A DNA stretch of 43,307 nt, taken from the IMG/VR virus record IMGVR_UViG_3300045988_156495, positions 1 to 43,307 of that record. One strand, written 5' to 3'. Positions 1 to 43,307 of this stretch are shown one piece after another. The first letter of the stretch is position 1. Each line of letters opens with the position of its first letter. The translations under genes and the position numbers were made by a program. The notes under the pieces were generated by a model. The model searched no databases, was not told the DNA's origin, and saw only the letters and a list, made by a program, of their open reading frames with translations. Source of the stretch: a virus.

Positions 1-119
1 CTTATCATCGCGGTAGCTCATCAGCGCTTCGATCATTTGCTGTCGGTTCATTTGACTGCCTCCTCTCGCTGGGCGGGAATGTGAATATCTCCTGATGTGA
101 TAGTATCGCTAAAAAAAAG
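1..119. repeat. Terminal direct repeat, copy 1 (identical to 43189..43307); implies a circular or terminally redundant 43,188-bp unit
   Basis: nt 1-119 (cttatcatcgcggtagctcatc...tagtatcgctaaaaaaaag) recur verbatim as the last 119 nt of the window. Confidence 0.95.
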
Positions 120-290
120 CTCGCCAACAGATTTACCGTAATGTTCCGCAACTTTACGCTTAGTTTTGTCGGAGCCATTCCGATCACCAGTCTCCATCAT
201 TGCAAGCATAGATTGTGCGATACCAATAGCATTTGCCGCCTGTGCCTGAGACTCTCTCTTAGCTTTTCGTGCCTCTAAAAGCTTGTTCAT
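48..290 (-). CDS. Cro-like XRE-family HTH regulator (first gene of the lytic/early operon)
   Basis: 80 aa with an HTH-like segment (ESQAQAANAIGIAQSMLAMMETG). GGAGG RBS 6 nt upstream. Divergent from the cI-like gene. Its stop overlaps the ATG of the next small ORF (ATGA). Confidence 0.75.
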   Translation of the reverse strand: MNKLLEARKAKRESQAQAANAIGIAQSMLAMMETGDRNGSDKTKRKVAEHYGKSVGELFFSDTITSGDIHIPAQREEAVK

Positions 291-302
291 TGTTTTGCCT
301 CC

Positions 303-349
303 TTATCACTTGATGTGATAACTATATCATCGCTCCACGTGATAGTCAA
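303..349. promoter_or_regulatory. Genetic-switch operators O1 and O2 overlapping the leftward early promoter
   Basis: O1 is a perfect inverted repeat, TTATCAC-ttgat-GTGATAA (303..321). O2 is TATCAT-N8-GTGATA (325..344). On the minus strand: -35 TTGACT (349..344), a 17-nt spacer, -10 TATAGT (326..321), then GGAGG and the cro ATG. Confidence 0.7.
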
Positions 350-382
350 CAATAAAAATCACTTTTTGAAATACTTTCTAAA

Positions 383-406
383 AATCACTTCGAGTGATTG
401 TATAAT
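383..406. promoter_or_regulatory. Operator O3 plus the -10 box of the rightward (repressor) promoter
   Basis: AATCAC-ttcga-GTGATT inverted repeat (383..399), directly followed by TATAAT (401..406), about 20 nt before the cI ATG at 426. An extra half-site AATCAC lies at 357..362. Confidence 0.6.
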
Positions 407-425
407 CGCATTAGGAGGACTGCTC

Positions 426-857
426 ATGAATATTGGCGAAAGAATTGCAATGCTACGAAAAGAGCGAGGCTGGAACCAACAACAACTCGCAGACAAAATT
501 AATGTGAGTCAGTCCACTCTTGCTATGTGGGAAACTGACAAACGGCGTCCAAATACAGATGCCTTGAACGACCTAGCGGACATATTTAATGTTTCTTTGG
601 ACTTTCTTATGTATCGTACAAATAAACGCAGATATTATGAGCTAACCGATAAGGACACCGAGGATATCGCTAAACAGGCTCAGCAGATTATTGATGGTAT
701 GAATTCAGATGCTAGTGTCAATTTTTACGGTGAACCGATGACAGATGAACAAAAGCAATCTATGAGGGACATTATAGAAATGGGGCTTCGTATCAATAAA
801 GAAAAAGCGAAAAATAAATTCACACCTAAGAAGTATCGAGATACGGGCGGTGATTAA
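426..857 (+). CDS. cI-like phage repressor (XRE HTH, ImmR-type, no S24 peptidase domain)
   Basis: MNIGERIAMLRKERGWNQQQLADKINVSQSTLAMWETDKRRP is a classic XRE HTH. AGGAGG RBS at 412..417. The ORF-track start at 315 is an unlikely upstream extension. The gene is followed immediately by an ImmA-like protease gene. Confidence 0.85.
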   Translation: MNIGERIAMLRKERGWNQQQLADKINVSQSTLAMWETDKRRPNTDALNDLADIFNVSLDFLMYRTNKRRYYELTDKDTEDIAKQAQQIIDGMNSDASVNFYGEPMTDEQKQSMRDIIEMGLRINKEKAKNKFTPKKYRDTGGD

Positions 858-1304
858 ATGTCGTATGCCAGTGACGTTGCTGATCAAACTTTTAAATGTA
901 CGGCTGATGTCGCAATAGATTCGACTGATCCATTTTCCATATGCAAAACATATGACTATGGGGTCAAACGGGTCACTATGCCCAATTCAACCATGGGTCT
1001 ATCAGTCAGGACTAATCGCTGTGCAACGATATTCTTGAGCGACAATCTTACTAATTCTCAGGAACTGCTTGTTCTTCTCCACGAAGTTGGCCATTGCCGC
1101 ATGCATAAAAACGATAGCACGCCATTTATGCGTTCTATGATGTTTGGCGGTTGGATACCAAGAATTGAACGAGAGGCAAATGAATTTGCTGTTAGATACA
1201 TGGTGGATATTCTGAAGGCTCAAGACGTTGAAATTACAACGACTTATGGGATACTTCAATATTTTGATCTTCCAGAATCATTCAACCGTTTTGTACTTGT
1301 TTAG
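858..1304 (+). CDS. ImmA/IrrE-family zinc metallopeptidase (anti-repressor protease)
   Basis: HExxH motif in LVLLHEVGHCRMH. The ATG abuts the cI stop (TAAATG). This is the canonical ImmR-ImmA gene pairing. Confidence 0.8.
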   Translation: MSYASDVADQTFKCTADVAIDSTDPFSICKTYDYGVKRVTMPNSTMGLSVRTNRCATIFLSDNLTNSQELLVLLHEVGHCRMHKNDSTPFMRSMMFGGWIPRIEREANEFAVRYMVDILKAQDVEITTTYGILQYFDLPESFNRFVLV

Positions 1305-1349
1305 CCGAGGCGCTCACTAATAAGCGCAAAGCATAATGGAGGGAAAGCA

Positions 1350-2153
1350 ATGGGGTTTTTTGACAAGCTTAAAGAAGCCGGAAACAAATTGAATGAAGCA
1401 TCTTCACTCACACCAGAAGAAAAGGAGGAACGCAAACAAGCCAAAATAGCCCTAAAAGCAGAAGTCATTTTGGAGGAACCCATCAAGTTTGTGAGCGGCC
1501 ACGAACTTGTTGGCGCTTCTGGATTCGGCAGCAGAATTTACCAATTAAAAGATAATACCGTTATTTTCGGGCTTAACAATCCGGAACACTTTTGGATAAC
1601 AGGCATAGAATTTGCAGGACCAAGGTATCATGAGATTCAAACTACCAAAAGCAAATCAGATACCAAGGGCAAATCTAAAACCAAAAAGCATCGACATGGA
1701 TTGGGTGGAGCTGTAATAGGGACAATTCTTGCCCCAGGTGTCGGCACTGTTGCTGGGGCTATCGTTGGCAGCCATTCTGGAAAAGACAAAACAAAGGGAA
1801 GCAGCTCCACTATTGGCGAAGCGTCAACAATCACTTCTCAGATTGAGGACGACTCGTCTACTATTGTCAAGCTTACAAATGCTGCCACTGATGAAAACGT
1901 TCAAATTATTCTTTTAACAAAAACTAGAGATTACCAGAGGCTAATGTCTTTCCATGTAAATATGGAAGTTATCAACAAGGACGATAGCGATGACCATAGT
2001 GAATCGTCATCTCGTACGTCTGCGAATCCAAAAACCGATACATTGTCCTCGAGCCCTGTTGAGGAAATTCGAAAATATAAGCAGTTATTGGATGATGGTA
2101 TTATCACTGCTGAGGAATTTTCCACAAAAAAGAAGCAGCTATTAGGGTTATAA
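1350..2153 (+). CDS. SHOCT-domain protein with a central glycine-zipper segment
   Basis: The C-terminus EEIRKYKQLLDDGIITAEEFSTKKKQLLGL matches the SHOCT short C-terminal domain pattern. GLGGAVIGTILAPGVGTVAGAIVGS is a GxxxG-type glycine zipper. GGAGGG RBS. Same strand as cI-immA. Confidence 0.7.
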   Translation: MGFFDKLKEAGNKLNEASSLTPEEKEERKQAKIALKAEVILEEPIKFVSGHELVGASGFGSRIYQLKDNTVIFGLNNPEHFWITGIEFAGPRYHEIQTTKSKSDTKGKSKTKKHRHGLGGAVIGTILAPGVGTVAGAIVGSHSGKDKTKGSSSTIGEASTITSQIEDDSSTIVKLTNAATDENVQIILLTKTRDYQRLMSFHVNMEVINKDDSDDHSESSSRTSANPKTDTLSSSPVEEIRKYKQLLDDGIITAEEFSTKKKQLLGL

Positions 2154-2160
2154 CCTGTAA

Positions 2161-2208
2161 AATCACTTTCTGTGACTCAAAATCAGTCTAAATACTGACG
2201 ACTATAAA
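2161..2208 (+). promoter_or_regulatory. Operator-like site plus candidate promoter upstream of the TerB_N cassette
   Basis: AATCAC-tttct-GTGACT (2161..2177) matches switch operator O3 (AATCAC-N5-GTGATT) at 11 of 12 arm positions. A second inverted repeat, TCAGT-N6-ACTGA, lies at 2183..2198. TATAAA lies at 2203..2208. Confidence 0.4.
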
Positions 2209-2233
2209 AGCTGTGAGTTAGGGGGGACGTGTC

Positions 2234-3781
2234 ATGGGACTGTTTGACCGCTTTAAGAAACTGGTTGTCGGTAATTCGAGCGAAACGCTTCCTACACAGC
2301 CGCCTGTAGACATAAAAAAACACAGCCAACCAATGCAACAGCACGGAATTACGACTCAAGTAATTCATAACATCCCGACCGAAGTTGCTGAATTAATGTG
2401 GTTTTTTGATGGACCGATGAAAAACCTTGACGCTGAAACAGAAGAGCCATCCGGAATTTCTTTTCGATTACCTGTCAAAAAGGCTAGTGCGCCAACGAGA
2501 ATGGGTTACTGGCCGTCATACCATAAGATGTCACCCACTGAGCGGTATAGCTATCTAAACTGGCTAACAAACGTTGATCAGCCTATTGATATCGGTTATG
2601 TCTTTGTTTTCTTTTATGGTCTTGAGCGCATGATTGCAACACCGAAACATGATGCTGCAGTGAAGATGATTCATCGGCTAAAGGAGCACCACAACGAAAG
2701 CGGGTCATTCTCATCCTATTCAGATGAAGCACTTGCGTACGCCGCGTTACTTTATCACGATCCTACCCCACTACAATATATCCGCGGAACTAACACATCG
2801 ATGTTGATACTATCGAAGGCAGCCTTCGATCATCGGTTGACTGCTGATGAAATCATGTCAAGTTCACGCGGGTTCGGATGGGACAACACTAGATACATTA
2901 AAAATGAACATGAACTTTTTGAGCATAATCTTCTTTTTTGTCTACAAAATTTGTACAAACAGGACTACTATCCGATTCCAAATCAACTAGATCAAGTCCC
3001 ACGTACTCAGTTGCATCTTGCCAATCTATCGATTGCAACTGATGAACGAGTTATCGATTTAGGCATAATTGATGGCTATCATTGGACAACCACTATGCGT
3101 ATCCCCAAACGAATAGATATCCCCGACTTTTCTCAATCGAAGATTATTTCTAGAGATATTCAGCAATTGCTCAAAATAGCGCACGAAAAAACCAAAGAAG
3201 ATCTAGCTAAGATGAGAAAGAACGGTGAACGCCCAAAGGCTGCCGCTAAGAAACCTTCTCGCAAAAAACGGATAAATCCTGACACAGGCTATCCCCTTTC
3301 AACTGAAAAAGCAATTGCGTGTGCTCGTGAACTATATAAATCCACAATTGCCGTTCACCCACAGCAGCTCACTGGTAATCCAGACTATGATGAGGAGATG
3401 AGAATAGTCGATCACGTCTTGCCACACTACCGCCTTGGTGATCTACACTACAAGCTTGGTGAGTGGAAGGAAGCAGAAACAGAATGGATTTCAATTCTTG
3501 ACTTAATGGGTGCTCTTGCCGCGGAAAAGCTGGCTATTATGTACCACAAACAACATCGGTACAAGGATGAAATGGAAATACTATCTGCTGGCATGAAAGT
3601 TTCTCAGCGTAGTAAGGTCTATCCAATACCCGACAAGTTTGCCGATCGTTTGATTGCGGCTAGTGAATTCTACGTGAAACATTCTACTGAGGATGAATCA
3701 GAGACTTTTCATTCGAGCAGTGGGCACAAAAATAGCCCCGGTGGCGAGGCTGAGGAGGTGGAACATTCATGGGATCAGTGA
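2234..3781 (+). CDS. TerB_N-domain protein with a C-terminal TPR-like helical region
   Basis: EPSGISFRLPV...MGYWPSYHKMSPTERYSYLNWL...DIGYVFVFFYGLERMI matches the TerB N-terminal domain signature (YWPSY...YL.WL...GYvF.YfYGLER). The C-terminal LGDLHYKLGEWKEAETEWISIL resembles a TPR. The N-terminus MGLFDRFKK resembles that of the upstream ORF (MGFFDKLKE). Confidence 0.7.
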   Translation: MGLFDRFKKLVVGNSSETLPTQPPVDIKKHSQPMQQHGITTQVIHNIPTEVAELMWFFDGPMKNLDAETEEPSGISFRLPVKKASAPTRMGYWPSYHKMSPTERYSYLNWLTNVDQPIDIGYVFVFFYGLERMIATPKHDAAVKMIHRLKEHHNESGSFSSYSDEALAYAALLYHDPTPLQYIRGTNTSMLILSKAAFDHRLTADEIMSSSRGFGWDNTRYIKNEHELFEHNLLFCLQNLYKQDYYPIPNQLDQVPRTQLHLANLSIATDERVIDLGIIDGYHWTTTMRIPKRIDIPDFSQSKIISRDIQQLLKIAHEKTKEDLAKMRKNGERPKAAAKKPSRKKRINPDTGYPLSTEKAIACARELYKSTIAVHPQQLTGNPDYDEEMRIVDHVLPHYRLGDLHYKLGEWKEAETEWISILDLMGALAAEKLAIMYHKQHRYKDEMEILSAGMKVSQRSKVYPIPDKFADRLIAASEFYVKHSTEDESETFHSSSGHKNSPGGEAEEVEHSWDQ

Positions 3782-4518
3782 CATCCCGCGTCAGCCCACA
3801 ATGGAGATTCGATACGGACAACTCAGGCGGGGGCCATACATCTGTTGACTCCGCATTCGTACTGGACGACTTGCTCTACATTTATTCAAATAAGGCTCCT
3901 TTGGACAAAAATCGACTCATGTTAATTATTGAAGGAAACGCCGGGCCGATATACGTCACCAATACCCCTCTCGCGCACGAGCTCATCATCTTGAACACCA
4001 AGCAAGCACGATTGTGGGCACGCGACGTTTATCAATTGGCGCACGAGTTGACGCACTTTGTCATATTTCACGGGATTCAACAGCCACAATTCAAATGGTT
4101 TGAAGAAACACTGGCAGAATTGTCCTCATACTTCTTCCTTAAACAAATGGCTGCTTACTGGGCTGCATCGAACAATCAAATTAAAAGGGCCTATGCAGAC
4201 AGCTTTCTGGAATATGTTGAGCTCGAGCGCCCCGATGCTGAAGATATCAAGATATCTGATTTATCCGATCCGTCATCGCATACCAGCCTAATGCTGGAGG
4301 GCTATCAATACGACCGTCCGAAGAACAATTACATTGCCCAGAAGATTCTCCCGGTCGTTGAAAACAATCCGGCTTACTGGAGGGCTCTTCCCTTTCTTGA
4401 AAAGGTTAGCAATGCAACCAGTTTCCTCGACTTCATGACGAAGTGGAAGGCCGTCTCACCTAAAGAAACGGGAGAAGCCCTGTCCGCAGTCACTTCTTTA
4501 TTTGAATCAGATCATTGA
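3769..4518 (+). CDS. Predicted zinc metallopeptidase (HExxH, gluzincin-like)
   Basis: AHELTHF followed 16 residues later by WFEETLAE, an arrangement similar to the MA-clan HExxH...E. GGAGG RBS at 3753..3757. The ATG overlaps the end of the TerB_N gene by 13 nt, which suggests translational coupling. Confidence 0.6.
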   Translation: MGSVTSRVSPQWRFDTDNSGGGHTSVDSAFVLDDLLYIYSNKAPLDKNRLMLIIEGNAGPIYVTNTPLAHELIILNTKQARLWARDVYQLAHELTHFVIFHGIQQPQFKWFEETLAELSSYFFLKQMAAYWAASNNQIKRAYADSFLEYVELERPDAEDIKISDLSDPSSHTSLMLEGYQYDRPKNNYIAQKILPVVENNPAYWRALPFLEKVSNATSFLDFMTKWKAVSPKETGEALSAVTSLFESDH

Positions 4519-4693
4519 CGGTATTGCCAGGAAGTCCCGGAAGTCCTGGATCATCGTGCTCATATCTAGCCACAATTCCATGCTGACGCAACGCCATTTT
4601 GATGTCTTTTAAATCGTAATCTATGCTTTGTAGGGCGAGCAGCAGCTCCTCACTCATAAAGTGCGGCTGATTCTTGTTGTCCACTTCAATCAC
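4490..4693 (-). CDS. Small hypothetical protein, convergent with the metallopeptidase gene
   Basis: 67-aa ORF with several possible starts (GTG/ATG). A TATAAT-like box lies upstream on the minus strand near 4725..4730. It overlaps the 3' end of the 3769..4518 gene by 29 nt. No recognisable domain. Confidence 0.35.
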   Translation of the reverse strand: MIEVDNKNQPHFMSEELLLALQSIDYDLKDIKMALRQHGIVARYEHDDPGLPGLPGNTVNDLIQIKK

Positions 4694-4818
4694 CTGCCTT
4701 TCTGGCCACTAATGAACTTTATTCACCTAATTATAGCAAAGATGAGTTGTATTCACCATCAACGGTTAAAAACATAGCTACTCGTATCAAATTATTAGTT
4801 AAGACAGGAGTCTTGCTT

Positions 4819-5244
4819 ATGGCAAATTCAACGATCAGGCAGGCCGATATACTGGTAAGAGAGTGTACCGTTATGCAGGTAGCTACGCTTGATACCGATA
4901 CTGGTTTCCCTCATATAGTTTCGCTGACACCACTTAAATCACACCGATCGCTTAAAGAAATCCTTTTTTACACTGATCGCGACACTACTACCATTCGCAA
5001 CGTCCTAGAGAAGCCTGTGGTGGCTGTTTACTGTTTCAATGATCTACACCACTCATCGTTGCTATTACGTGCAAAAGCAGTTGTATTAACAGCTGAGGAG
5101 GTCTTACCAAACTTTACAGAGAACCTCAATACTTTTCAAAAATCGTTACAGTATGATCGACCCGTCATCATTCGTTGCACCCCACTAACCGTCAAGATTA
5201 GATACAACAATGACATCGAGTTCAGCAAGCTAAACGAAATCTAA
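4819..5244 (+). CDS. Pyridoxamine-5'-phosphate-oxidase-like (FMN-binding split-barrel) family protein
   Basis: The pattern VMQVATLDTDTGFPHIVSLTPL...ILFYTDRDTTTIRNVLEKPVVAVYCF...LLLRAKAVVLT resembles PNPOx/general-stress-26 beta-barrel proteins. AGGAG RBS before the ATG at 4819. The track start at 4747 is unlikely. Confidence 0.45.
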   Translation: MANSTIRQADILVRECTVMQVATLDTDTGFPHIVSLTPLKSHRSLKEILFYTDRDTTTIRNVLEKPVVAVYCFNDLHHSSLLLRAKAVVLTAEEVLPNFTENLNTFQKSLQYDRPVIIRCTPLTVKIRYNNDIEFSKLNEI

Positions 5245-5267
5245 ACTCAGTTCTTGGAGATGCACTT

Positions 5268-5471
5268 ATGAACGGTCCAGATACATTAAGTGAGGCACAC
5301 TTCATTGGCCTCATCATTGTTCTTATAGGCGTCTACTTCTCCCTATTCGGGAACAGGCACCGTTGGTTACATTGGCTCATTGACCCAGACAAACCCGGAA
5401 GTAACCTGTGGTGGGCAGCCGTTTTTATCATTATTGGCGCGCTCATGATGATGGTTAGAAAGATGCAATAA
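5268..5471 (+). CDS. Small two-TM membrane protein
   Basis: 67 aa with two hydrophobic spans (FIGLIIVLIGVYFSLF and LWWAAVFIIIGALMMMV). GGAGA RBS. Confidence 0.55.
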   Translation: MNGPDTLSEAHFIGLIIVLIGVYFSLFGNRHRWLHWLIDPDKPGSNLWWAAVFIIIGALMMMVRKMQ

Positions 5472-5510
5472 TACGACCCCATAACGAGTTTGGTTTTTAG
5501 GAAAATAAAT

Positions 5511-5528
5511 AGCCTTCCGCGGAAGGCT
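5511..5528. other. Perfect 18-nt palindrome / hairpin between ORFs
   Basis: AGCCTTCCGCGGAAGGCT. There is no clear U-tract, so terminator function is uncertain. Confidence 0.4.
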
Positions 5529-5543
5529 TGGAGGTGAAAACTA

Positions 5544-6323
5544 TTGGCCGAAGGTATTAATCTGACAGGCGAAGTTACCCATTCGTCAGTATATCAAGCT
5601 GCTCTTAAAGCTTATTCCCAAAATTTGTATGATGCTGCGAAATCCATGCAAAAGGTCATAGACATAAGCAACATCGCAAATGTACGGCTTGCAAATCAAA
5701 TCAAACTCCCCGACTTTTCAAAAATGTTAACGCCGCCGCTGGCTTATAAGGAGAGTATTGCTGCGCTTGCAAATAAGCCTTTTGCTGATTTTCAGCCTAT
5801 TATTAAACAGCTTCAACAGGCACCTAACCTCTCGGCCTTTAATATGTCAATGCCTACTTCCAAACTAATATCCAATGTTGCAAAATCGGCCGCTCTCGCA
5901 AATCGTTTGTCTTTTTCCAACTCAGTTCTCAGCAAAAGCCTGTTGGATCATACGATAAAAATATCTTCGACCGGCTGGGATGGCAATCAATATGAACGTA
6001 AACACCAGAGCAATTTTCAAAGTGCTCTCAATAGTCAAACTGACTCGGCTAATTCCAAGCCAACCAGCAGTAAGATTAATCAGGAAACCAATAGTATAAG
6101 CGCAAAAGTTACACAGCAGGAGAACATAAGGGAAAAGCACAAACAGCCTTCGCAGACGATCTTCAAACATGAGCTACCCTCCTTATCGGTTATGCTAGAT
6201 ATTGCCGGAAATATAATTCTTGCAATGCAGGTTTACCATTTTAATGATGAGTATATTCAAATTGCCTACACTGCTCTCATGGTCTTCATCGTGAAGCAAT
6301 ATTTCGATTCAAACAAACAGTAG
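5544..6323 (+). CDS. Hypothetical protein, S/N/Q-rich with a C-terminal hydrophobic anchor
   Basis: 259-aa ORF with a TTG start 7 nt after GGAGGTG. C-terminal hydrophobic segments (VMLDIAGNIILAMQV and IAYTALMVFIV). No recognisable domain. Confidence 0.5.
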   Translation: MAEGINLTGEVTHSSVYQAALKAYSQNLYDAAKSMQKVIDISNIANVRLANQIKLPDFSKMLTPPLAYKESIAALANKPFADFQPIIKQLQQAPNLSAFNMSMPTSKLISNVAKSAALANRLSFSNSVLSKSLLDHTIKISSTGWDGNQYERKHQSNFQSALNSQTDSANSKPTSSKINQETNSISAKVTQQENIREKHKQPSQTIFKHELPSLSVMLDIAGNIILAMQVYHFNDEYIQIAYTALMVFIVKQYFDSNKQ

Positions 6324-6466: not shown

Positions 6467-7630
6467 ATGCCAAAATGGACACCATACAAACGCCATCCAG
6501 GGGTATATGAATACCAAACCAAGAAGGGGAAAAGGTTTGGGGTCAGACGAACCTATGATGATGCTATGGGGGAAAGGAAAGAGTTCTCAAAATCCGGTTT
6601 CATTCATTGGCAAGATGCTGATATTGAAATCAAACAATTTGAGGCAAAGCTTGCTCGCGGAGAAGTTTCAGGGTCTTTGGGTCATAGAATGACAGTTGAT
6701 CAATATTACCAGCAAATGGCAAAGCGGAAAATGAAAATGGGTATCTGGCGTGAATCAACAGCAAGAGCGAACAAGAACTTCTATTCAAAGTATCTCAAGC
6801 CGGCATTTGGCAAAACACCTCTACAAGATGTATCAAGAGCCAAATATCAGCGTTTTATCGATGAGTTATCACAATCAGGTCTAGCGTTAACAACTGTCCA
6901 TACTATTGATGCTGTCATGAAGAGCATCATGAACGCCGCTGAATTTGAGGATGTCATCGACAAAAATCGGCTTCGAGGTATGCAGATCAATGGAAAAGCG
7001 CCTCGAAATAAGGATTTAGAACCACATTCATTTGAGCTGTGGCTAAATACAGCAAAGACGAATCTTGATAAGTACGAAATGGCCTTGATCATCACTGCAA
7101 CGCTCGGGCTTCGCCGCGGAGAAGTGATGGGGCTTCGAAATGAGTCCATCAAAATATCCCACGATCAAATCAACGATGCCGATGTCGCGAAAATCTCGAT
7201 TGACATGCAACGCAACACAAATGAACTTAATGGCGGCCCGCTCAAGACCAAATCATCGTACAGAACCATATGGGCATTTGGCAAAACCGTTGATTATTTG
7301 AAGTACGCAATGATTACGGCTGATAATCTAAGGCAAAGGAACCATATTCAAGCGGAGAAACATTGGCTGTGGCTTAACAATGATGGTAACCCGTTGCACC
7401 CCACCCATCTCAATCGATTGATGCGGAGAGTAAGCAATGAGTCCGGCGTTGAAGTGTACCCACATTTGCTCAGGCATTATTTTGCAACACAAGCGATTGC
7501 TGCCAACAAACCGCAAATTGATGTCATGCACTATCTTGGTCACAAGAATCTTCAAATGACAGCCGACTACACCCGTTCAACAAAAGCCGCTAGTCTAAAT
7601 GTTTTTAATAGTATCGATAAGTTTCTTTAA
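6467..7630 (+). CDS. int: Tyrosine site-specific integrase
   Basis: 387 aa. The C-terminal catalytic region HLLRHYFATQ...MHYLGHKNLQMTADYT carries the R..H.LR.....Y signature. GGAGG RBS. Confidence 0.9.
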   Translation: MPKWTPYKRHPGVYEYQTKKGKRFGVRRTYDDAMGERKEFSKSGFIHWQDADIEIKQFEAKLARGEVSGSLGHRMTVDQYYQQMAKRKMKMGIWRESTARANKNFYSKYLKPAFGKTPLQDVSRAKYQRFIDELSQSGLALTTVHTIDAVMKSIMNAAEFEDVIDKNRLRGMQINGKAPRNKDLEPHSFELWLNTAKTNLDKYEMALIITATLGLRRGEVMGLRNESIKISHDQINDADVAKISIDMQRNTNELNGGPLKTKSSYRTIWAFGKTVDYLKYAMITADNLRQRNHIQAEKHWLWLNNDGNPLHPTHLNRLMRRVSNESGVEVYPHLLRHYFATQAIAANKPQIDVMHYLGHKNLQMTADYTRSTKAASLNVFNSIDKFL

Positions 7631-7966: not shown

Positions 7967-9541
7967 TACGTAGTGGCTGCTTAAAAATTCTATAATTCAG
8001 GCAGTTAAGCTAATATATGCATTATTGCGGTATAATAAATCCATTGGAATTAGCTGTTTTCCTGCATTTTCCTTGCATTTTTTGGGAAGCTACTCGGAGG
8101 TTATCGTATGGTCTATCGTCACAGCCCGCTTCAATTGTCATTTGAATCCTTTGGTGCCGGTTTAAGTACCCCACTTAGCTCTAACAATGAGTGGGTCCAG
8201 TTGGCGGAGGTCATGCCCTGGAAAGCTCTCGATGAGGCATACCAATTGGAGTTCACCAAAAATGCGGGACGTGCGGCAAAACCATTTCGTTTACTCTATG
8301 GGGCAATCCTGATCCAACAACGGATGGGTTTAACTGATCGTGGGGTGGTTGCGGCAATTCGTGATACACCCGCACTTCAATATTTCATCGGGTTGTCCGA
8401 ATACAAAGCGGTTGAGCCGTTCAATTATTCCAGCCTGGCACACTTTCGCAAACGAATTGCCGATATCTCCGAGCTGATTACGAATATCATGAATGATACA
8501 GTACGCGCCAAGATCGAAGCGTTGGTCCCATTCAAAGTGGACACCGTCATCACGGACGCAACCGCAGTGCCAGTCAAAATCAAGTATCCTCAAGACACCG
8601 TCCTCCTCAACCAAGCAAGGCTGAATCTTGAGGCGATGGCGATCGATATGGCACACCAACTTGGTGTGCCAAACCCACGCATGTACAAACGCGAGGCGAA
8701 GCATTGTTGGACCTCATTTTCACGACATCCAAAGCAACAGCGTGGTGGCTTTCATAAACAGGTCAAGGCCCAACTTCAATATGTGCGCCGTGATTTGCGG
8801 TACATCAACGAATTCATCGATCAGGGTGCGACTCTACCAGATGAACAAGCGATTCGCTTAGGCGTGATTCGAATTCTATTTGACCAGCAATGGTACATGT
8901 ATACCCACAAGACTCACCACGTTGAAGACCGAATTGTTAGTCTCCAACAGCCGTACATTCGCCCAATTCAACGTGGTAAGGCCAATGCTAAAGTTGAATT
9001 TGGGGCGAAGATTGACTGTTCGTTAAGTGAAGGCGTAGTCGACATTGAACGTTTTGATTTCACCGCATTCTCTGAGGGCCAAGACTTCGCGGAAACTTTA
9101 GACCACTATTACGACCTTCATGGACATTATCCGGATGAAGTACTGGCCGATACGCTGTACCGTAATCGGGAGAACCTAAAGCTGTGTAAGGATTTGGGTA
9201 TCCGAATCTGCGGTCCGAAGCTTGGCCGGCATCCAAAACACGTTGATGCAGCGAAACGGCGTGAGGATACTGATGCCGAGAATCGAAGAGGTACCATTGA
9301 ACGCCGGTTTGCTTTTATGAAGGGCACGCTGGGGCTTGGCTTGGTGAACACTCGGACAGCTGAATCACTGGCCGTCAAGATTGACGCGGCCATCGTCTTG
9401 AGCAATGTGCTGACCCTGTTAAGGGTATTTGCTATACCAATTTTAATTTTGGCTAAATTCGAGGGTGAGGCCTATCAAATTCGCTATAAATTTACTACAA
9501 GGGTCGAAGATATGGTGGCCTAGTTCAACAGCCACTACGTA
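7967..9541 (+). mobile_element. IS5/IS1182-like insertion sequence (core boundaries; may extend to about 7893..9615)
   Basis: 13-bp perfect terminal inverted repeat: TACGTAGTGGCTG at 7967..7979 and its reverse complement at 9529..9541. It encloses a single DDE transposase ORF. The sequence about 75 nt outside each IR is also weakly inverted-similar. Confidence 0.7.
8108..9523 (+). CDS. DDE transposase, IS5/IS1182 family (InsH-type N-terminal domain)
   Basis: 471 aa. The N-terminus FRLLYGAILIQQRMGLTDRGVVAAIRDTPALQYFIGL matches the DUF772/InsH N-terminal transposase domain. GGAGG RBS. Confidence 0.8.
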   Translation: MVYRHSPLQLSFESFGAGLSTPLSSNNEWVQLAEVMPWKALDEAYQLEFTKNAGRAAKPFRLLYGAILIQQRMGLTDRGVVAAIRDTPALQYFIGLSEYKAVEPFNYSSLAHFRKRIADISELITNIMNDTVRAKIEALVPFKVDTVITDATAVPVKIKYPQDTVLLNQARLNLEAMAIDMAHQLGVPNPRMYKREAKHCWTSFSRHPKQQRGGFHKQVKAQLQYVRRDLRYINEFIDQGATLPDEQAIRLGVIRILFDQQWYMYTHKTHHVEDRIVSLQQPYIRPIQRGKANAKVEFGAKIDCSLSEGVVDIERFDFTAFSEGQDFAETLDHYYDLHGHYPDEVLADTLYRNRENLKLCKDLGIRICGPKLGRHPKHVDAAKRREDTDAENRRGTIERRFAFMKGTLGLGLVNTRTAESLAVKIDAAIVLSNVLTLLRVFAIPILILAKFEGEAYQIRYKFTTRVEDMVA

Positions 9542-9628: not shown

Positions 9629-9859
9629 TCAGTATTCTTCTCCGTCCCAGCCACGTAGACCAGGAGGACCGCAAACGGCTGATTTATGCTCCAAGGCCAT
9701 TGTCACAGACTGAACGGAGGCAACAGCATTTATAAGTTCATCAGTTGAATGCTTGTCTGAAGCGGAATCCAGCAACTCTGAAACGGCTCTCATTAAGTCA
9801 CGTCTCACATAACTTTGCTCAATAACTCGTGCTTGATCAATTTTTTTAGACATATGCAC
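9629..9859 (-). CDS. Hypothetical protein downstream of the endolysin (moron position next to attP)
   Basis: 76-aa ORF. The more likely start is the ATG at 9853, 6 nt after AAGGTGA. No recognisable domain. Confidence 0.45.
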   Translation of the reverse strand: MHMSKKIDQARVIEQSYVRRDLMRAVSELLDSASDKHSTDELINAVASVQSVTMALEHKSAVCGPPGLRGWDGEEY

Positions 9860-13462: not shown

Positions 13463-16390
13463 TTAATTCACCACCGCATCATTGGTCGGATACGCATCAT
13501 GAGTAATAAAGCTCAAGCTGCCAGCATACCCGCCTTGTCCACGCCATGGAATAATGTAAATTCCACCAGCTGAAACATATAATTCACAGGCTGCGCCCGT
13601 ATACGACATGCTACCGAGCAACCTTGCTGCATCATCACTGTTAAATGGGCTATACCCCGGTCTAATGTCCGCAATCTTAACCCATCCATTGCCAGTCTTC
13701 ATTTGGAAAGCAATCCCAATGGTGACATTTGGGCCTTTTCTTGAATATGAGATATTTAAGTTCTTGACATCATTAGTTTCCAGCCCCGAGTCTTTGTGAT
13801 AGTAATCAACTGCATCATGAGCATTAAAAGTGGAAGTGATGTATTTGGCAGAATTACCCAATCCGCTGACTAGGTCTGTCAGTTCAAGAACACCCATCGA
13901 AATTCTGCTGGTGTGCATTTGTGTTGTTCCATCTGTCTGCGTAATGTATGACAGTAATCCATCGGGATTTACTTCCGTATGATAGATTTGGCCGTTTGGC
14001 TTGCCATTAGTGTCCTCAATATTACCGGAAATGACATATGAGGCACCATTGAGCGTTAAGGAACCACTGGACAATATCCCGGATCCTGCAATGCTCACGT
14101 GTTGGAAAGGAACGTTGATATTAGGCGAATTAATCTCAGCGGAATTAAGAATAATTGAGTTGAGTTCTTTAATGTACAAAACAGCTTGAGCAATCGCATC
14201 ATCTACCCACTTGGAACCGTCATAGCGCTGTACAGCCGTTGCGTCTTTTAAGCTTGTCCCGTGCCACCAGGTATCGCCCTTTTTGGGATTTGCTGGGGCA
14301 TCTAGCTGTACATAAGGAAACGGCACATCCTTGCTTCCAGGAGTACCCTGAACGCCTTGAGGGCCCTGCGGTCCTTGTGGACCAGTGTCACCCTTTGGCC
14401 CCTGCACTAGTTGCCAAGAATAAACATCCGGGTTAGTGCTGTCGGCCTGTGTGAAGTCTGTGTAACTACCGATGTATTTTCTAGAACCCGGAGTATCGAG
14501 CGAAAAGTTCGTTTTACCGTCACTGCTGTCAGCATATGCAATATGGAAGTACGATGTCTTGCCATCGGCACCTGCTTTACCCGGCACCCCATCTTTACCA
14601 TCCGCACCATCTGCGCCCTTAATGAGCGACCAGTGATAGTCGCTTGGATTCGTGCTGTCGCCAGATGAAAAGTCGCTGTAGAAACCAATGTACTTGCGGT
14701 TAGAAGCGGTAGTTGAGAAGTCGGTATTGCCGTCTTGGCTGTTTGCATAAGCAAAGTGAGCATAGGCAGTACGACCATCAGCACCCGGTTTCCCTGGCAA
14801 TCCTTCATCGCCCTTTGGCCCCACGTCACCATCTTCACCTTTGAAAAGCGCCCAGCTGTAATCAGCCGGATTAGTGCTGTCGGCCTGTGTGAAGTCGCTG
14901 TACGTGCCAATATACTTTTTGCCATCGCCACCGGATACCGTGAACCCACTTTGGCCACTTACATCATCTGCCCAAGCAGTGTGAAAATAGCTTGTACGGC
15001 CATCCGCACCCTTGGCACCAGGAACACCATCAGCGCCATCGGCGCCCTGAATCAGTGCCCATTTACCAGCGTAATCGTCCGGATTGTCGCTTGGGACGGA
15101 TGTCTTATTTGACCAAACGATTGCCATATACTTCTTACCAGTTGGGAAGGCACTCATATTGGTGCCTTTATCGTCATCGGCATAACGGAGCCAAGGATAG
15201 TATTGAACGGTTTTTGAGATATTCGACATCTGGTTGGCAAGCTCGCTGAGCCGTTCGTCAAAGCTAACGGTCTCGTGCGCAAACTCGCCCAAAGTAAGCT
15301 TGACTGAATGGTTAGCACGGCTCCGCTGAATGCTCAATACCTTGGCAGATAGGAATAGCTGTTGATTCTCATCGGCGATGTGGACGGTTTGATTCAGTGG
15401 TACGTATGGTGAGTTAACCAAATCAATATCATAGGTTTCATTCGGATGGTTATACTTTTTCAAGTCTGCCAAAGCTGCTTGCAAAAGTGCCGCCTGCGAT
15501 TTTGAATCAAACGTTTTAACCCTATTCCAGTCAGACTGTGTTGGGTTAGGGTTGCTGTTGCTTAACAAACGTGAATATTTCTGCACAGCAATGGTGTCAT
15601 GCAAAAATCCGTACTGATCAAGCACAAACTGTCCCGTTGGATCAGTCCACTTGTAGCCGATCAAGTTAATTGGATCCTGATTAGTTGATCCATCCGTACT
15701 TTCTGGAACCGCTCCATAAGCCTTGATCGATGTTTCCATGTCATAGGTATCGAGGTGCGTGACGATATTGTTGATGTCCTTATTCATTTCAAAGGAAATC
15801 AAGCTGTCACCGGCCGTTTCATGTCGAATGTTAATGACATGCTTAACCAAATTCGTTCCAACAAACTCAAATCCAAAACTAAGCACTGCATCAAAATCTT
15901 TTGCCACAGCAATAATGCGAGCCAACGATGATTCTTCACTAGTCCACTCAAGTGTTCGAACATTCTTAGGAAATTCATTAACGCCAATCTCCCAGCCAGA
16001 ATCATTTGTAAACCTCGTGATGTAGTCAGCGATGGTATATGGTTTGTCGGCCTTGTACGCGCCAACGGTTTCGTTAATCAAATCATTACCGGCATCACTA
16101 GCAACAATTGAGTGGATATGTCCTAGTGAATCATGGTCAACCGATTCAATTACCATTTGGTGAGCGTTGCCTTCTTCATCTTGATACATGATGAAGTTGG
16201 TTGCTTTAGCCATCTCATTGACTGCTTGTTCCTGATCATTCGTGAAGTGAATATCAAGAGAAAGCTCGACAGCAGGACGATTGTCAACACTTTGCGTTTC
16301 TATATCGTTGTCAATTCGCCATTCGCCTTTGCCATCAGTCGACCCAACACCCAAAATGTTTGATTTTCGATCTGCAAAGTAATACTCCAT
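13463..16390 (-). CDS. Tail-associated protein / receptor-binding fibre (Tal-type N-terminus, collagen-like repeats)
   Basis: 975 aa. The N-terminus MEYYFADRKSNILGVGSTDG... resembles the prophage tail endopeptidase / minor structural protein N-terminal region. Carries G-x-y runs (GPKGDTGPQGPQGPQGVQGTPG). Lies directly after Dit. Confidence 0.75.
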   Translation of the reverse strand: MEYYFADRKSNILGVGSTDGKGEWRIDNDIETQSVDNRPAVELSLDIHFTNDQEQAVNEMAKATNFIMYQDEEGNAHQMVIESVDHDSLGHIHSIVASDAGNDLINETVGAYKADKPYTIADYITRFTNDSGWEIGVNEFPKNVRTLEWTSEESSLARIIAVAKDFDAVLSFGFEFVGTNLVKHVINIRHETAGDSLISFEMNKDINNIVTHLDTYDMETSIKAYGAVPESTDGSTNQDPINLIGYKWTDPTGQFVLDQYGFLHDTIAVQKYSRLLSNSNPNPTQSDWNRVKTFDSKSQAALLQAALADLKKYNHPNETYDIDLVNSPYVPLNQTVHIADENQQLFLSAKVLSIQRSRANHSVKLTLGEFAHETVSFDERLSELANQMSNISKTVQYYPWLRYADDDKGTNMSAFPTGKKYMAIVWSNKTSVPSDNPDDYAGKWALIQGADGADGVPGAKGADGRTSYFHTAWADDVSGQSGFTVSGGDGKKYIGTYSDFTQADSTNPADYSWALFKGEDGDVGPKGDEGLPGKPGADGRTAYAHFAYANSQDGNTDFSTTASNRKYIGFYSDFSSGDSTNPSDYHWSLIKGADGADGKDGVPGKAGADGKTSYFHIAYADSSDGKTNFSLDTPGSRKYIGSYTDFTQADSTNPDVYSWQLVQGPKGDTGPQGPQGPQGVQGTPGSKDVPFPYVQLDAPANPKKGDTWWHGTSLKDATAVQRYDGSKWVDDAIAQAVLYIKELNSIILNSAEINSPNINVPFQHVSIAGSGILSSGSLTLNGASYVISGNIEDTNGKPNGQIYHTEVNPDGLLSYITQTDGTTQMHTSRISMGVLELTDLVSGLGNSAKYITSTFNAHDAVDYYHKDSGLETNDVKNLNISYSRKGPNVTIGIAFQMKTGNGWVKIADIRPGYSPFNSDDAARLLGSMSYTGAACELYVSAGGIYIIPWRGQGGYAGSLSFITHDAYPTNDAVVN
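14336..15047 (-). repeat. Three tandem units of about 70 aa (collagen-like Gxy stretch + beta-rich module) inside the fibre gene
   Basis: Units GADGADGVPGAKGADGRTSYFHTAWADD...YIGTYSDFTQADSTNPADYSW, GPKGDEGLPGKPGADGRTAYAHFAYAN...YIGFYSDFSSGDSTNPSDYHW and GKDGVPGKAGADGKTSYFHIAYAD...YIGSYTDFTQADSTNPDVYSW. Confidence 0.85.
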
Positions 16391-43080: not shown

Positions 43081-43239
43081 TTAAGCTGTAGCAAGGTAAT
43101 CAATCATTTCGTTCCTTGCACGTTCCCTTTCAGCACTGATTGCCATTTCGAGCATGTCATCGTCCATGGTTTCCCAAAAAGCTTTGGGCTTATCATCGCG
43201 GTAGCTCATCAGCGCTTCGATCATTTGCTGTCGGTTCAT
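43081..43239 (-). CDS. Small early protein (52 aa) translationally coupled to cro
   Basis: MNRQQMIEALMSYRDDKPKAFWETMDDDMLEMAISAERERARNEMIDYLATA. GGAGG RBS. The ATG overlaps the cro TGA in the repeated copy at 48..51. Confidence 0.5.
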   Translation of the reverse strand: MNRQQMIEALMSYRDDKPKAFWETMDDDMLEMAISAERERARNEMIDYLATA

Positions 43240-43307
43240 TTGACTGCCTCCTCTCGCTGGGCGGGAATGTGAATATCTCCTGATGTGATAGTATCGCTAA
43301 AAAAAAG
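43189..43307. repeat. Terminal direct repeat, copy 2 (identical to 1..119)
   Basis: Exact 119-nt identity with the window start. Confidence 0.95.

Follow-up and report, generated by a model that had tools for sequence, protein, structure and literature searches.

In the Shango system, SngA, a protein of TerB_N-TerB-TerB_C architecture, acts together with the SngB ATPase and the SngC helicase. Mentions of TerB_N in the literature were found only for Shango, Bunzi and Dionysus, where the role of TerB-type proteins is unexplained and membrane surveillance is a possibility. The Lit protease of prophage e14 is a single-gene abortive-infection zinc protease. Ltp is the product of a lysogeny-module gene, and its role in exclusion is established (PMC3952083). 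Here we compare with these systems two overlapping genes of the viral DNA stretch IMGVR_UViG_3300045988_156495, which was analyzed over its full length of 43,307 nt (the window; all coordinates are window positions). Gene A (2234..3781, plus strand) encodes a 515-residue protein with a TerB_N domain and a C-terminal domain resembling tetratricopeptide repeats (TPR), and gene B (3769..4518, plus strand) encodes a 249-residue predicted gluzincin-like zinc metallopeptidase. The original prediction was that A is the sensor and B the protease effector of one defense or exclusion system. Our analysis makes it likely, instead, that A and B are independent accessory cassettes, predicted to be expressed in the lysogen, rather than a two-gene system.

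The arrangement that suggested a pair is exactly as described. The ATG of B, at 3769, lies 13 nt ahead of the stop codon of A (TGA, 3779-3781) and is preceded by its own GGAGG ribosome-binding site (3754..3758, 10 nt upstream), and both genes are located between a CI-like repressor with its ImmA-type neighbor and the integrase, all on the plus strand, as confirmed by Pfam calls. Profile searches were made over approximately 250 related loci (cited here by L numbers, and homologous proteins by P numbers), in which 57 A-positive and 91 B-positive sources were counted, plus 27 further A-family viral loci. The full pair was found only in the window and in L064; one of the 27 further loci has B, and that locus (L222) is the same contig as L064. 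No adjacency of A and B was found across divergent genomes. TerB_N was absent from the 25 Pfam families that most commonly adjoin B in 21 dereplicated B loci, and nothing B-like adjoined A in a Pfam neighbor survey of 32 A-family loci; what the two surveys returned were HTH (helix-turn-helix), antirepressor, S24, M78 and integrase genes. The closest relatives of A, and likewise those of B, have a different gene next to them. A 98% identical homologue of A (P0006, 512 residues) sits in the same Cro-CI-ImmA-SHOCT-A block and is followed by a DUF6414 gene (L017-L019), while B at ≥99% identity is present in six IMG/VR prophages, only one of which (L064) also has A, an unrelated gene for a polytopic membrane protein or a membrane-anchored protein taking the place of A in the other five. 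In addition, B has become a pseudogene independently of the presence of A. As co-occurrence of A and B stops at that one near-identical phage, the interpretation as a pair fails; a translationally coupled sensor-effector system, which has on its side the common strand, the 13-nt overlap with a separate ribosome-binding site, the recurrence of the arrangement on one near-identical contig and the defense candidates hosted by the same module, seems to us very improbable.

The origin of the overlap could be traced to the nucleotide level. Window positions 47..3746 are 98.9% identical to L017, in which A is followed by DUF6414, and positions 3721..5547 are 97-99.7% identical to L008, L062, L063 and L065-L067, which have B and no A. 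Between these breakpoints (3746 and 3721) is a conserved 21-nt inter-cassette linker, ACAAAAATAGCCCCGGTGGCG (3726..3746). A five-way alignment showed that the linker is shared, while its left flank is specific to the upstream cassette and its right flank to the downstream cassette. In L008, L062 and phage JNU_P10 it lies between genes; in both L017 and the window it is translated into the tail of A, where it gives residues ~498-504 of the window protein (HKNSPGG). This tail (residues 495-515) is disordered in the AlphaFold2 model, with a predicted local distance difference test score (pLDDT) below 50, and most homologues stop before it. In every B locus, loci without A included, the GGAGG and the start of B are part of the B cassette. 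The linker breakpoints, the disordered tail and the B-owned start signals together indicate that the overlap is a by-product of cassette exchange. Modular recombination at the linker would have joined two independent 'moron' cassettes, and the reading frame of A would then have continued across the linker and on into the B cassette's 5′ flank, giving the 13-nt overlap. We reject a conserved A-B operon in view of these breakpoints and of the co-occurrence data. Lysogeny-module cassettes get shuffled at short conserved linkers, and a shared strand with overlapping start and stop codons is weak evidence for a functional pair in such modules. A G+C-rich hairpin that resembles a terminator on the minus strand overlaps the linker (3734..3751), and a similar one (5511..5528) closes the B-to-PNPOx homology block (3721..5547); the number of such sites in the consensus scan was not above shuffle expectation.

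The domain content attributed to A was borne out. Pfam TerB_N (PF13208) matches residues 68-168 (2435..2737) with 70.5 bits against a cut-off of 25 bits (E = 2e-19), covering EPS...GYWPSY...DIGYVFVFFYGLER, and the only PADLOC match is SngA of Shango (E = 5e-18). When the A family was aligned with SngA-like proteins by hhalign, the probability was 99.7%, with 41% identity over 112 columns (residues 71-184). Ten residues show no variation in the A family (Y92, P94, Y96, R104, F124, F126, Y128, G129, E131 and R132), nor do their aligned positions in the SngA-like set. The shared core can be written EPS...GYWPSY...DIGYVFxFFYGLER...SFxxY, and genes of both types occur in mobile, defense-rich contexts. 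Outside this core the proteins differ. A and its full-length relatives lack the TerB (PF05099) and TerB_C (PF15615) domains, both of which are carried by the SngA-like matches, and A instead has a TPR-like domain and, at its N terminus, a short amphipathic motif; its gene stands alone in a prophage lysogeny module. Neither a SngB ATPase nor a SngC helicase was found in that module, where the neighbors of A are a SHOCT-domain protein and B. No ATPase or helicase was present among the nine largest other open reading frames (ORFs) of the window, which comprise lysin, tail, tape-measure, capsid, portal, terminase and GcrA-like genes and one without a Pfam match; smaller ORFs lie outside that scan.

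According to the family alignment and the AlphaFold2 model (pLDDT 80.6), A consists of an N-terminal MGLFDRFKK helix, a disordered linker, a confidently modeled TerB_N-type core at residues ~45-335, a basic linker, the TPR-like domain at residues ~350-490 (3281..3703) and the disordered tail. TPR-like is a fair label for the C-terminal domain. The Pfam TPR models stay below threshold on A (TPR_2, 16.3 bits against 27; TPR_1, 15.7 against 27.8), but the A-family profile matches consensus TPR proteins in the PDB (E = 2.4e-7), and Foldseek relates the predicted structure to three-TPR designs with a probability of 0.99 and a template-modeling (TM) score, normalized to the target, of 0.55-0.57. This was the only part of the model matched in the PDB fold search, so there is no structural precedent for the TerB_N core. 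The helical domain also corresponds to the uncharacterized family phrog_25280 (E = 1.5e-44), and it exists as a protein of its own, encoded after ImmA, in JNU_P10 (a tblastn match) and likewise in several IMG/VR phages. The TerB_N core, in turn, occurs as a stand-alone protein after HTH and M78 genes in Enterococcus.

The N-terminal helix of A is predicted to be amphipathic (residues 4-11, at low pLDDT), and the protein has neither a signal peptide nor a transmembrane helix. In some paralogues (P0016/17/19 and P0028/30/33) the MGLFDxFKK motif is replaced by transmembrane segments, and this replacement suggests that the motif is a membrane-binding amphipathic helix that tethers A to the membrane. 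The preceding gene (1350..2153, plus strand), which encodes a SHOCT-domain protein with a glycine-zipper segment (Pfam SHOCT, E = 4e-9), and A begin with the same motif, MG[LF]FD[KR][FL]K (1350..1391 and 2234..2266). In the closest prophages, the SHOCT gene and A share one homology block. SHOCT and A were considered as an obligate pair and rejected, as the SHOCT gene is found only in the near-identical Lacticaseibacillus block and not in L005-L007 or the Enterococcus loci.

Like Ltp of Streptococcus thermophilus phage TP-J34 and Sie2009 of lactococcal phages, A and B are located between repressor and integrase, have the orientation of the repressor, as is expected of superinfection exclusion genes of lysogeny modules, and vary in the manner of cassettes. 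The resemblance does not extend to the proteins themselves; Ltp and the Sie proteins are lipoproteins or integral membrane proteins, located within the membrane or on its outer side, whereas A lacks membrane-spanning or export signals and B, likewise without a membrane helix, is probably cytoplasmic, and no sequence similarity to A or B was found. An ltp gene directly adjoins a homologue of A in the same slot in L006. That the slot holds lysogen-expressed accessory genes, as originally proposed, agrees with the gene content of related prophages, which carry the candidate defense genes Ltp, PDC-M24 and PDC-S48 there; by its sequence content, the lysogeny module of this phage group is defense-rich. 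In the slot ahead of the integrase, sister prophages have the PADLOC candidates PDC-M24A/B (DUF6978 and DUF1828) and PDC-S48 (a DEDDh exonuclease), at L008 7777..9072, L017 9894..11189 and L005 7261..8205.

Taken together, the homology and the location suggest that A is plausibly a stand-alone, membrane-proximal exclusion or defense factor. A is homologous to the N-terminal part of SngA and would have no ATPase or helicase partner; it would be transcribed with the repressor operon in the lysogen, be held at the inner face of the membrane through its amphipathic helix, bind a protein partner with its TPR-like domain, and act alone in superinfection exclusion or defense. The genomic contexts of A homologues are varied. 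P0009 is encoded after an S24 repressor and ahead of DUF5067 and RNase_T genes (L005), P0015 follows HTH and ImmA-like genes and precedes the Ltp lipoprotein (L006), and P0007, 70% identical to A, is a lone chromosomal gene (L016). Other TerB_N-core proteins related to A are found beside Hachiman (HamA and a helicase) in Enterococcus quebecensis (L024 4326..9272), beside a SNF2 helicase or an AAA_5/nSTAND3 (AAA/STAND) ATPase in other phyla (L044 and L046) and, in a gut phage, between terminase and portal (L003 4995..6527).

The recurrent placement of A-family genes raises the question of whether A belongs to the repressor/ImmA unit. In the window, that unit consists of the CI-like HTH repressor (423..857, plus strand; Pfam HTH_3, E = 3e-17, and Phage_CI_repr), which is the first gene of the lysogeny operon, and its paired ImmA/IrrE-type M78 metallopeptidase (858..1304, plus strand; Pfam Peptidase_M78, E = 4e-7; PHROG 87 metallo-protease, E = 2e-20). 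In ICEBs1, RapI, a TPR protein, feeds into ImmA-mediated repressor cleavage. A might likewise be a sensor feeding into cleavage of the repressor by ImmA, or a toxin-antitoxin-like effector controlled by XRE and M78 proteins, following the logic of RosmerTA or CapH/CapP. Consistent with this, homologues of A follow HTH and M78 genes directly in L007, L021, L228, L229 and L244-246 (P0017 being one such protein), as do A-family genes or halves of A in L022 and, for the TPR-like half, JNU_P10, and the ImmA protein of the window weakly matches CapP. On the other hand, A occurs after a self-cleaving S24 repressor without ImmA (L005) and alone in chromosomes (L016, and a guaA locus in L023/26/27), and relatives of it lie next to Hachiman or between terminase and portal. 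Furthermore, the SHOCT gene separates ImmA from A in the window, and the post-ImmA slot holds unrelated membrane proteins in sister phages. We regard membership of A in the repressor/ImmA unit as unlikely.

B is a 249-residue HExxH protein, as had been recognized. Across 91 diverse homologues, H92, H96 and E113 do not vary and E93 is conserved in ≥90%, giving an HExxH-x16-E signature formed by the HELTH motif (residues 92-96, 4042..4056) and E113 (codon 4105-4107), the predicted third zinc ligand. In the AlphaFold2 model (pLDDT 95) a small sheet is followed by the HExxH helix, by the helix that bears the Glu and then by a bundle of helices, and the zinc-ligand residues are located on consecutive helices (H83-99 and H106-132). 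B looks zincin-like, in line with the metallopeptidase originally proposed. Its best matches in the PDB fold search are all zincin peptidases, and all are weak: the M61 aminopeptidase 7xyo (probability 0.99, TM-score 0.47), M3 enzymes (oligoendopeptidase F/Pz-peptidase), MATCAP and LTA4H/M1, every one at E≥0.039 and with TM-scores of 0.3-0.47. One strong match was obtained in BFVD, to an uncharacterized viral protein, alongside weaker matches to peptidase, IrrE and SprT folds. B shares with the gluzincins (clan MA(E), including M1, M3 and M61; MATCAP) the HExxH motif with a downstream Glu on the next helix and a small preceding beta-sheet, and differs in being a single 249-residue domain with a His-to-Glu spacing of 16 and a C-terminal helical bundle unlike that of the listed enzymes. 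No significant Pfam, NCBIfam, PHROG or PADLOC family was found for B, PADLOC giving only weak RmrA matches; PDB sequence searches were without a match. A full HMMER scan gave 810 representative homologues (clusters at 50% identity), and the family has no Pfam model. Fusions of the homologues, to TPR or substrate-binding domains or to nothing, gave no functional clue. Judging from the model and the conserved ligands, B is a probable cytoplasmic zinc peptidase of a new, uncharacterized family, and it would work as an endopeptidase without A.

One may also ask whether B is a divergent ImmA-like protease that cleaves the HTH repressors of its own or of competing prophages, and thus part of a genetic switch rather than of defense. 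B resembles ImmA/IrrE (M78) and RmrA of RosmerTA in its HExxH zincin core and in its association with HTH repressors in immunity regions; its neighbors are mostly HTH_3, antirepressor (ANT, Bro-N, AntA), S24 and M78 genes, and IrrE-like viral folds are among its structural matches. However, B has no fused HTH, and the similarity covers only ~50 residues around HExxH. The match of B to M78 (PF06114) is below threshold (15.7 bits against 22, E = 0.013), only two of the 91 family members match it at all (best E = 0.0012), and hhalign gives ImmA a probability of 64.7% over 52 columns confined to the zincin core; on these grounds B was rejected as a member of the M78/ImmA family. The best fold matches are to M61, M3 and M1, a genuine ImmA is already encoded separately in the phage, and B appears to be dispensable in some lysogens, given that it is a pseudogene in L008-L011. 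There, the B homologue (P0002, 88% identical) follows a DUF4352 protein and is split into 173 and 75 residues (L008 6001..6749); this variant, seen in several sequencing runs, circulates as a prophage whose module is otherwise intact. A switch protease of this kind is, in our estimate, rather improbable. Other homologues include P0004 (49% identical), directly after an S24 repressor, and those of Streptococcus phages, which stand alone on the opposite strand in the early/switch region among HTH, antirepressor and S24 genes.

The picture of two independent cassettes, with a role for A or B in defense, has to be set against several observations. The one other contig with both genes (L064/L222) keeps the A-B arrangement at 98% identity, and a recent juxtaposition could still have gained a joint function. 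A-family genes very often follow HTH and M78 genes, and a regulatory link is possible beyond a shared slot. Taken broadly, the B family also has members in chromosomal surroundings other than phage (P0005/L015 and environmental loci). Finally, as we see it, the case for defense draws on position and on homology to one Shango component of unexplained mechanism. We propose an anti-phage role only tentatively for A and, to the same degree, for B. In concept, the role considered for B recalls Lit of prophage e14, a stand-alone prophage HExxH protease directed against a superinfection target, to which B has no detectable sequence relationship. If either gene confers phage resistance in Lacticaseibacillus, this would be relevant to dairy and probiotic strains. 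While the claimed two-gene system does not hold up, the stand-alone TerB_N protein and the new phage-borne gluzincin remain of interest. The A family is widespread beside repressor/ImmA genes in Firmicutes prophages and may offer a simpler handle on the TerB_N module of Shango, and the B family, with its ~810 clusters, has phage-borne members with a recurrent small partner carrying a collagen-like motif.

This partner, if B has one, would be the product of a convergent small gene of 67 codons (4490..4693, minus strand; the likely start is a few codons in), which overlaps the 3′ end of B by 29 nt and encodes PGLPGLPG (4526..4549). In L012 the small ORF is conserved at 83% amino acid identity where B has only 49%. 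Its nucleotide differences fall 10/7/26 on the three codon positions, with 22 synonymous versus 12 non-synonymous codon changes, a pattern of purifying selection at the sequence level. It has no relationship to the small ORF that adjoins DUF6414 in L017, and L. paracasei N1115 has an identical ORF, whose annotation is hypothetical protein. These observations together support its being a genuine gene that is tied to B. Among 22 dereplicated phage-borne B loci, 20 have a convergent small ORF after B; the 20 ORFs fall into approximately nine families unrelated by BLAST and bear collagen-like sequences such as AKGPAGVPGL, GKPGVPGIG, PKGAPGAMG, GLKGERGCVG and DPKGPTGSP. Two motif classes, both defined post hoc, were counted. 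G-x-x-G-x-x-G is present in 9/20 B partners, compared to 4/291 other small genes of the same loci and 0/122 convergent ORFs beside other genes, and the collagen-like P/K-G-x-x-G in 12/20, 6/291 and 3/122, respectively (Fisher p ~1e-9 to 1e-12, with partner clusters that are partly related). The enrichment was not reproduced in 33 environmental B-family clusters (motif in 2/25 and 3/25, compared to 5/92 controls).

The motif-bearing partners, along with the collagen-like stretches in a tail protein of the same phage, led us to consider B and the small ORF as a protease and Gly-X-Y (pseudo)substrate pair. The tail protein in question (13463..16390, minus strand; Prophage_tail and BppU-like) contains four such stretches, with sequences such as GEDGDVGPKGDEGLPGKPGADG, GLPGKPG and GVPGAKG. 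The Gly-X-Y peptide would be a substrate, a pseudo-substrate inhibitor or a decoy that mimics these repeats. Attractive as this idea is from the sequences, we consider it somewhat doubtful that B and the small ORF form such a module. The small ORF keeps its place beside B across divergence and is under purifying selection, the motif is enriched relative to both control sets, and, as a weaker point, two enzymes with activity on collagen-type peptides, Pz-peptidase and LTA4H, are among the fold neighbors of B. Conversely, the motif was chosen after the fact from clusters that are not fully independent, the environmental B-family clusters do not show the association, and the small gene of Streptococcus phages is simply the next early gene of a tightly packed operon. 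The P-G codons also make palindromes, so that an element acting at the DNA level is possible, although the synonymous changes favor selection on the peptide. The combined proposal, in which B and its small partner form a hitherto undescribed protease/collagen-mimic module and A is, separately, a single-gene exclusion factor, is distinctly unlikely as a whole. If it were true, B made by the lysogen would cleave Gly-X-Y stretches in the tail or baseplate proteins of superinfecting phages, and the small Gly-X-Y protein, made from a transcript in the lytic direction, would be a pseudo-substrate that turns B off upon induction of the resident phage. A, for its part, would be the first case of a TerB_N protein that stands alone and, as a single gene, provides exclusion close to the membrane. 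A 76-residue ORF adjoining the lysin gene (9632..9859, minus strand) contains GPPGLRGWDG.

The module that harbors A and B belongs to a complete phage genome. The right end of the window (43234..43307) repeats ~74 nt of the left end (1..120), and this overlap identifies the window as a complete, circularly permuted temperate phage genome and not a prophage end. DNA matches to temperate phages of the Lacticaseibacillus paracasei/casei/rhamnosus group assign it, by sequence, to the Lacticaseibacillus temperate siphophages. Late genes (lysin, tail, tape-measure, capsid, portal and terminase) occupy the minus strand from 9898 to 43307. The lysogeny module ends with the tyrosine integrase (6467..7630, plus strand; Pfam Phage_integrase, E = 6e-17), and a PNPOx-like protein gene on the plus strand is also among the genes surrounding A and B. 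No tRNA attachment site was found in the window. Promoter and terminator scans gave site counts equal to shuffle expectation and we make no claim about transcription units from them; the hairpin just 3′ of B, considered as an intrinsic terminator, folds no better than shuffled sequences (z = 0.88) and has no T-run. An unassigned ORF of 259 residues (5544..6323) occupies the slot ahead of the integrase. Between the integrase and the lysin gene is an IS5-family transposase gene (NF033578, E = 7e-123; 8108..9523, plus strand), an insertion close to the expected position of attP. The intergenic DNA that separates the small minus-strand ORF from the PNPOx gene contains the direct repeat TATTCACC in two copies whose starts are 33 nt apart (4694..4760); this repeat could serve as an operator or belong to divergent promoters.

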